This document shows positions 14,725 to 16,861 of a DNA stretch of 64,000 nucleotides, piece by piece. Source of the stretch: Cladosporium halotolerans (Eukaryota). The notes beneath the pieces are model-generated. The model worked only from the letters and a program-made list of their open reading frames with translations. It made no database searches and was not told the DNA's origin. Numbering within the stretch: position 1 is the stretch's first letter; each line of letters begins with the position of its first letter. The stretch is from the NCBI RefSeq assembly GCF_011745625.1, contig NW_027191465.1, positions 310,001 to 374,000 of the forward strand. The letters run 5' to 3'. Position numbers and translations under genes: made by a program.

Positions 14725-16861
14725 ATGGACGCCGAACAACGCTGGCCGCGAGGCCTCCTCCGCGACCTCGACAGCCTCTCCGTCGACCGCCACGAGCAAC
14801 CCAGCTCCACCAGACGCTCCTACTCGCGCCCGCGCGTCTACAGGCCGCAGGAAAACAGCCGCCACCGCGCCCAGCAGGCCTCCAGACAGGACGCAAACCG
14901 CAAGGCAAGCAACAACACCTCCACGACCGCCCGGCGCCCGGAAGAATGCGAGATCTTCCCGACGAAGAAGTCCCTCATCCTCTGCTTCGACGGCACGGGC
15001 AACAAGTTCCAGGGCTCGGCGGGCGACAGCAACATCCTGAAGATCTACAGCATGCTGGACAAGGAGGACCCGCACGTCTTCCGCTACTACCAGCCGGGCA
15101 TCGGCACGTACGTCGAGTCGAGCTCGCTGTCGCGCAAGTCGCGCGTCGGCCGGATCAAGTCTTGGTACAAGAAGGCCAAGGATCAGGCGGTCGGGACGAG
15201 CTTTGGCGAGCATGTTATGGCGGGGTATAAGTTTTTGATGAGGTATTATAGTGCTGGCGATGATATCTATTTCTTTGGGTATGTTTTGAGGATCGTTGAG
15301 TGGCAATGGTAGAAGCTGATCTCTTGATAGTATGAAACAGTCGGAACTCGACGGTCGTTGCAACGACAAATTGCTGACAACACCATAGGATTCAGTCGCG
15401 GTGCATACACAGCTCGCTTTCTTGCTCAAATGGTAAGCCCATGGACTGTCGCCTGGAGCTGATATGAAATACTAACGCTGAAAAGCTCGACTATATCGGC
15501 CTACTGAGCACAGGCAACGAGGAGATGCTGCGCTTTGCGTGGAAGACTTTCTCGCGTTGGCAGATGCTCACCGAAGGGACCGATGAAGAAAAGAAAAAGA
15601 AACACGAACAGTTCAAGTACATGGAGCAGTTCCGTGAGACATTCTCGAGGCCCATCAGTAACATTAGATTCGTTGGCCTGTTCGGTAAGTTAAGGTGGCG
15701 AGTCGTATGGACTGACGTGAGTTTACTGACATGCGAAATCCGTTCGCAGACTGCGTCAACTCCGTACCGCAATTCGAATCCGTCTGGATGAAACGCAAGA
15801 GCCGCTTCCCCTACACGGCCAAGATGTCAGCAGACGTCATCCGCCACGCCGTTGCCATCGACGAGCGCAGGGCGAAGTTCCGGCAAGATCTGGTCTCTCA
15901 GGCGCCTCCGAAGCAAGCCAAGCACCGTCATTTCGACGACTACATGCAGTGGCTCCATCTCGACGCGCTGAAGAACAAAGTCGAAGGCGAGAACGAGAAG
16001 CAGAACCCACAGCGTCCGGAAGCGCAGCGTAACGATTCGTCGCAGGCCCGCTTCCGTCCGCAGAAGACTCAGCACCATAGGCACGCGAGACCAGGAAGCC
16101 CGGATGGCATGAGGAACTCCGTCGATTACCCTATATCGCCGCGCCAAACAGATGGCTACGACCAAAGTCAAAGTCACAAGCAGGAGAGCGGCCAGGACAT
16201 CTCCGAGGTCTGGTTTGCAGGCGAGCACGCAGATATTGGCGGTGGCTGGTGGCTGCTCGACGACGAGATCCGGCCCGCAAGCGACCTACCTCTAATCTGG
16301 ATGTTGCGCGAGGCCCAGCGTGCTGGTATGCCACTCGACGAAGCCAAGATGGCGAGGGCGCAATACCATGCCGGCGAAATGGGCATCGCCATGGACGAGA
16401 CTTACCGCTTGGATGGCAAGGTCGACGACTCGGACGGCACCTTTTCGATGTCGGACATCGAGTACCTCGCGACACAAACCCGCCTGCACGACTCGCTGAC
16501 GTTCAGCGGCGGTCTGCCGTGGACGGCCGTGATGGCCTGGCTGGTCATGGAACACTTGCCGTTCAGACGCATGGATTTGCAACCCGATGGAACGTGGAAG
16601 CCGATCAGCTGGCCTCTGCCACGAGGCGAGACAAGAGATATGCCCGATGATGCTCAGGTTCACAGCTCCGTCATCCAGCATATGAAGGCTGACTCGAACT
16701 ATCGGCCGGGTAATCTCATCATTGGCGGCGGTGGAAGAGGTGTGCGTAAAGCGCCGAAGAGTGCAGGTATTGGTAAATGGCGGGTGAGTAGGGAGAGAGG
16801 TGATCCAATTGGAGAGTCGGTTGTTAGGGTGGTGCGCAGATCCACGGGTCTGGGCTTCTGA
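14725..16861 (+). CDS. DUF2235 (Tle1-like alpha/beta hydrolase) domain protein
   Basis: Motifs LILCFDGTGN, YYQPGIGT, FFGFSRGAYTAR, GLFDCVNSV, RHAVAIDERR and EVWFAGEHADIGGG. Intervening sequences at 15278-15388 (twin intron), 15433-15485 and 15685-15749. Confidence 0.92.
15278..15388 (+). other. Spliceosomal twin intron (stwintron), [D1,2] with an equivalent [A2,3] route
   Basis: Sequence reads TTT G|G GTATGT...GCTGAT...GATAG TATGA...GCTGAC...CATAG|GA TTC. Two donor/branch/acceptor sets overlap by one G at 15330. Of the plausible routes, only two-step splicing restores FFGFSRG. Confidence 0.8.

Follow-up and report, generated by a model that had tools for sequence, protein, structure and literature searches.

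The window (the whole 64-kb stretch of DNA analysed) carries, at 14725–16861 on its + strand, a gene encoding a protein of the PF09994 family (DUF2235, currently named T6SS_Tle1-like_cat), a domain of the alpha/beta hydrolase type. Three exon pieces of this gene score 102.8, 43.3 and 91.2 bits against the Pfam profile, for which the gathering cut-off is 27, and they cover the profile positions given in Table 1. Positions 102–116 of the profile are absent between exons 1 and 3, so a short exon is needed for these 15 positions, and GFSRGAYTARFLAQM fills them exactly. This exon 2 supplies a GxSxG motif in the form GFSRG, which places the protein in PF09994 with its motif present and a catalytic function predicted from sequence. 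The full spliced model comprises 635 amino acids, contains no internal stops, and aligns end to end with two homologues, P0001 (76%) and P0002 from Cladosporium fusiforme (79%). Within GFSRG, the codon of the first Gly is interrupted by an intervening sequence composed of two overlapping intron units (52 and 59 nt) that are similar in size to the two other introns of the gene (53 and 65 nt). A long open frame lies downstream of the gene in the list of open reading frames (window 17127–19001, + strand) and contains a Cys-rich motif that resembles an ArfGAP zinc finger.

Table 1. Features of the PF09994 gene and of its twin intron (window coordinates)
Feature	Position	Strand	Content and role	Support
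Exon 1	14725..15277	+	ATG to the first G of the Gly codon; N-terminal PF09994 (DUF2235 / Tle1-like), ending ...DDIYFF-G	Pfam positions 1-101, E 2.8e-29; RNA contig X15
Flanking G	15278..15278	+	[D1,2] route: would be the first base of the outer intron's split donor; [A2,3] route: would be exonic, base 2 of the Gly codon	Unchanged in all 10 aligned sequences
5' intron unit, 52 nt	15279..15330	+	Donor GTATGT 15279-84, branch GCTGAT 15315-20, acceptor TAG 15328-30; putative internal intron of the [D1,2] route; G15330 common to the next unit	Published formula fully matched; signal columns conserved
3' intron unit, 59 nt	15330..15388	+	Donor GTATGA 15330-35, branch GCTGAC 15373-78, acceptor TAG 15386-88; putative internal intron of the [A2,3] route	Formula match; alignment
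Flanking G	15389..15389	+	[A2,3] route: would be the last base of the split acceptor TA/G; [D1,2] route: would be exonic, base 2 of the Gly codon	Invariant in alignment
Exon 2 remainder (exon of 43-44 nt)	15390..15432	+	Encodes (G)FSRGAYTARFLAQM with GxSxG	RNA contigs X15, X16
Intron 2, 53 nt	15433..15485	+	Canonical, GTAAGC..AG	GT..AG RNA joint in X15, X16
Exon 3	15486..15684	+		Pfam positions 117-181; RNA contigs
Intron 3, 65 nt	15685..15749	+	Canonical, GTAAGT..AG	GT..AG RNA joint in X15, X17
Exon 4, to stop codon	15750..16861	+		Pfam positions 182-287; RNA contigs

Restoring the sequence ...YFFGFSRGAYTAR takes the removal of exactly 111 nt, from 15278/9 to 15388/9, and, as claimed in an earlier note on this DNA, no placement of this removal has GT..AG ends. 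Eight placements starting from 15275 to 15282 were compared, five of which (15277–15281) yield DDIYFFGFSRGAYTAR; GT..AG was found in none of them, nor in any of the four placements of a second test. The one-step excision from GT15279 to AG15388 removes 110 nt and shifts the frame, and its product, with the other introns out, stops at residue 233. The two complete signal sets described in the earlier note were found at the positions that it gave, overlapping at G15330, with G15278 and G15389 on either side. On the [D1,2] reading, G15278 stands directly 5' of the donor GTATGT at 15279, so that removal of the 5' unit creates G/T...; the outer intron present after this first cut would have the donor GTATGA, its own branch element and an acceptor, and no single canonical excision gives the correct frame. 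On the [A2,3] reading, G15389 stands directly 3' of the TAG at 15386–88, and the rebuilt outer intron would run from GTATGT to TA+G over 52 nt. The order of excision makes no difference to the mature sequence, as had also been noted, both routes leading to TTT-GGA-TTC.

The segment 15278–15388 satisfies the published [D1,2] search formula (model A, PMC9024468) in full. This was the single match, starting at 15278, on both strands of the 64-kb window, compared with a mean of 0.125 and a maximum of 2 matches in 40 random sequences matched to it in dinucleotide composition. When the interior of the window segment was shuffled 20,000 times, an internal site of this kind arose in 0.26% of the shuffles. 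A different two-step path, via CAG at 15338–40 and the donor GTCGGA, is possible on paper; it was rejected, GTCGGA being outside the 24 donors of the formula and the site not being conserved in relatives. An origin by local duplication was likewise discarded: a 13-nt direct repeat (15331–43 and 15386–98, 77% identity) is not echoed in relatives and was taken as chance. The 3' unit also contains a perfect 14-nt palindrome, GTCGTTGCAACGAC, at window 15354–15367, which is not conserved in relatives.

The mature junction predicted in the earlier note, TTT/GGATTC, is present in two RNA contigs from different studies, X15 (2034 letters, placed on 14700–16842) and X16 (239 letters), each of which skips exactly 111 nt. 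Both join 15276 to 15388, at a joint that slides by two places and has GT..AG at none of them, and the mature mRNA thus lacks the whole complex sequence. Intron 2 (X15 and X16) and intron 3 (X15 and X17) are spliced in the same material at ordinary GT..AG joints; X17 has no contig across the twin-intron site and does not bear on it either way. The RNA contigs are 95–99% alike to the window and hence come from related strains. A model in which part of the intervening sequence is retained as a micro-exon was ruled out by the RNA joint, which is one contiguous 111-nt skip. Neither this form nor the frameshifted one, the two outcomes named in the earlier note as evidence against its model, was seen in X15 or X16, which, like all four runs, are assembled contigs and drop rare forms.

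The site adjoins a run of GGG, and an extra G at 15277–79 or 15388–89 in the assembly could in principle make a plain 110-nt intron look complex, or the gene could be a frameshifted pseudogene. The earlier note had itself named miscounted Gs as a way in which its proposal could fail. An independent DNA contig, X6, carries the whole stretch with 67 differences in 2201 bases, and its only indels inside the intervening sequence are a deletion of one base at 15322 and a compensating additional G after 15324; there is no indel at either boundary. The G counts at both boundaries are the same in X6 and in 11 related loci, all of which have the GGGT and AGG boundaries, and an assembly error is therefore excluded. 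Together with the in-frame mRNA contigs and with a 635-residue model that stays open and aligns over its full length with P0001 and P0002, this leaves the error or pseudogene explanation with a negligible probability.

Metagenome contigs were scanned with the conserved part of exon 1, and 80 loci were kept. Eleven of them (L001–L005 and L007–L012; L005 is identical to L009, and L010 to L011) have an intervening sequence of 107–160 nt at the same site and are 85–95% identical in the scanned part of exon 1. The layout G/GT...AG/GT...AG/G, whose conservation the earlier note had proposed to examine in orthologues, is present in all 11 relatives that cover the site: each has both a [D1,2] and an [A2,3] solution, none has a one-step GT..AG solution, and the 5' unit measures 51–66 nt. 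These relatives share ancestry, and their agreement does not amount to 11 independent events. L006, a twelfth locus, breaks off within the intervening sequence, yet its first unit and the shared AG/GT are visible. L012, on a 37,584-base contig, is the most distant twin-intron locus; its first donor, GTATCA, is unusual, and intron 3 is missing from it. The other 68 loci covering the site have no intron there and read F-G-FSRG contiguously (63 directly and five on inspection); several of them lie on contigs of 85–549 kb, which shows these to be genomic. Among these intron-free sequences, the L019 orthologue (L019:1613-1970) has in-frame stops within the conserved domain (...GFSRGVYIA-stop-FLAEM...T-stop-FAWK...) and probably represents a pseudogene or a copy mutated by RIP. 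Intron 2, separated from the twin intron by an exon of only 43–44 nt, is restricted to this clade: all nine twin-intron loci that extend to it have it, and seven outgroup loci tested lack it. A stretch of about 210 nt has thus acquired three small intron units. The earlier note had also looked to orthologues with a canonical intron shifted by one nucleotide, and none was found among the 80 loci.

In an alignment of the 10 distinct sequences, no variation was seen at the intronic columns GGGT and AGTA.G (the latter shared by the two units), at the closing AGG, or at G, T and A of branch element 1. In branch element 2, C, T and A are nearly invariant, and the remaining intronic columns are variable and contain indels. 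A strict internal site is present in 11 of 12 sequences, the exception being L003, in which the first branch element is TTGAC rather than CTRAY. The published formula is matched at the site in eight of the 11 relatives and is missed by one degenerate position each in L005/L009 (second half) and L012 (first half). Away from the site, in 296,389 bases with both strands included, there are only four matches: L003:4330 (-), L015:3747, L016:5180 and L019:4014 (-), the latter three being one sequence. They are likely false positives, since each lacks an open frame on at least one side.

These alignments bear on a simpler account, in which the 111 nt would be spliced in one step at a non-canonical pair, GG..AG (15278–15388) or GT..GG (15279–15389), and the internal signals would be idle. 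The RNA contigs, which record the end product, are equally compatible with one step and with two. Across 10 otherwise diverged sequences, however, interior conservation is limited to the internal acceptor/donor overlap and the first branch element, a pattern that would be unexpected if they were unused, and the chance of such an internal site in shuffled interiors (20,000 per sequence) is 0.19–0.76% for each sequence. Pairs of the GG..AG and GT..GG kinds are moreover very rare among U2 introns. One-step removal is accordingly considered very improbable.

We therefore consider, with a probability of about 0.9, that the 111 nt constitute a spliceosomal stwintron of the dual [D1,2]/[A2,3] type in a PF09994 (DUF2235 / Tle1-like) hydrolase gene of a Cladosporium-like fungus. 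Two ordinary small U2 intron units sharing G15330 would be spliced out one after the other under intron definition, a reading favored because the interior signals are conserved and would be unconstrained if the 111 nt left in a single non-canonical step. In the first route, 15279–15330 would be removed first, joining G15278 to TATGA as a new donor for a 59-nt outer intron that would then be excised. In the second, 15330–15388 would be removed first, joining TA to G15389, which would make a new acceptor, and removal of the 52-nt outer intron would follow. Either unit may go first. The inference of two-step excision, and of the route or routes used, draws on the comparable stwintron in the Trichoderma reesei (T. 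reesei) DHA1 antiporter gene.

The twin intron may also have a single working route, either [D1,2], the 5' unit being transcribed first, or [A2,3], with the other being merely formal. Because the Gly codon GGN dictates both flanking Gs, both routes are always formally open and conservation cannot separate them. The preferred route in T. reesei differed between ESTs and RT-PCR, indicating that route use varies (PMC5587772). On the other side, the same donors, branch elements and acceptors serve both routes, and the sequence disfavors neither. A single-route intron is thus a possible though less probable arrangement than the dual one.

The protein collection places the site in a wider setting. 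Among the best 120 longer homologues, 118 have Y-x-x-GFSRG with nothing inserted. The two that lack the motif are P0011, which is without the region, and P0004 (AMS68_007250) from Peltaster fructicola. In P0004, ...DDIYFFG is followed by about 20 unrelated residues and then by exon 2 in the wrong frame (HTLHAFWLRCL), and GFSRGAYTAR is lost, which suggests a complex intron at the same site in this species. If Peltaster fructicola does have a complex intron there, the gain would be deeper than the Cladosporium-like group. The 32 closest short open reading frames in the collection (P0121–P0152) all end at or soon after YFFG, with GFSRG in none, and the next eight short frames shown after them continue with FSRG. 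The expectation in the earlier note that gene callers would mis-model the site held in part: the Peltaster fructicola model derails exactly after YFFG, and the Cladosporium fusiforme model is correct. The site carries a practical warning for annotation, in that at least one public orthologue gene model loses the catalytic motif exactly here.

A broader scenario, which we offer as speculation and regard as rather improbable, would account for both the origin and the persistence of the element. The twin intron would have arrived at an intron-free site in the ancestor of the Cladosporium-like clade, as one unit or in two hits, and would then have been locked as an obligate dual-route stwintron, since GGN supplies both flanking Gs. 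A competing 110-nt cut would give a frameshifted, early-stop transcript, and the choice of splice path would set the amount of active hydrolase, as a regulatory valve.

Stwintrons provide direct evidence that filamentous fungi splice by intron definition, and they are a proposed intermediate in one-nucleotide intron shifts. The stwintron proposed here would add an RNA-supported, dual-route case in a new gene family and in a very common airborne fungal group to a class that is itself already known. At least 10 natural sequence variants, in which only the splice signals are kept, form a convenient series for two questions: how complex introns originate, and why some stay stable as opposed to decaying to a simple intron. 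In agreement with the earlier note, which knew of none in this gene family, a literature search that covered few of the supplements found no report of a stwintron in DUF2235 genes or in Cladosporium. The term 'DUF2235' is absent from the main texts of PMC5639578, PMC9024468 and PMC12403724, and from one supplement of PMC9024468.

The dual [D1,2]/[A2,3] class was proven first in Helminthosporium solani (2015; as cited in PMC5587772 and PMC5639578). That case is of the same dual type and also comes from a Dothideomycete, but differs from the present one in gene and order. According to PMC5639578, the [A2,3] reading exists whenever the downstream exon begins with G. The closest counterpart is the T. 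reesei DHA1 antiporter gene, which has the same architecture and in which both intermediates were sequenced as cDNA (Fekete et al. 2017, PMC5587772). As in the present gene, the two internal introns have a single G in common, the 5' donor is preceded and the 3' acceptor followed by a G, and the mRNA is the same whichever intron is taken out first; PMC5587772 also describes the T. reesei locus as misannotated. The units are larger in T. reesei (66 + 88 nt, from the same source, versus 52 + 59 nt here), and gene and taxon differ, the present gene being that of a DUF2235 hydrolase in a Cladosporium-like Dothideomycete, known from mature RNA contigs rather than from intermediates. Canonical introns one nucleotide apart occur in the DHA1 gene of some species (PMC5587772), in contrast to the 80 loci surveyed here.

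More than 1500 [D1,2] stwintrons have been reported from Hypoxylaceae (PMC9024468). The sister stwintrons of Hypoxylaceae and Xylariaceae, which are similar to one another in sequence, resemble the present element in their [D1,2] architecture and in occupying sites that are intron-free in other taxa (PMC9024468 and PMC12403724). PMC12403724 (2025) describes for them an occasional splicing error that takes out nearly the whole stwintron as a single canonical intron, and the possible 110-nt one-step cut at the present locus would be of that kind. The features by which these repeated, mobile stwintrons are recognized, similar copies at other genomic sites and terminal inverted repeats, are absent from the window: its 64 kb contain no second copy, and no inverted repeats or hairpin were found in 15200–15500. 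The fold of the twin intron is no more stable than that of shuffled sequences (z -0.24). Unlike the Xylariales sister stwintrons, the element is conserved by a clade at a single orthologous position rather than being specific to one species. Recursive splicing and nested introns of animals, with which PMC5587772 also contrasts stwintrons, likewise involve the removal of one intervening sequence in several steps. No splice-site element is interrupted in those animal introns, whereas in the twin intron proposed here the outer donor or acceptor would exist only after the inner unit has been removed.
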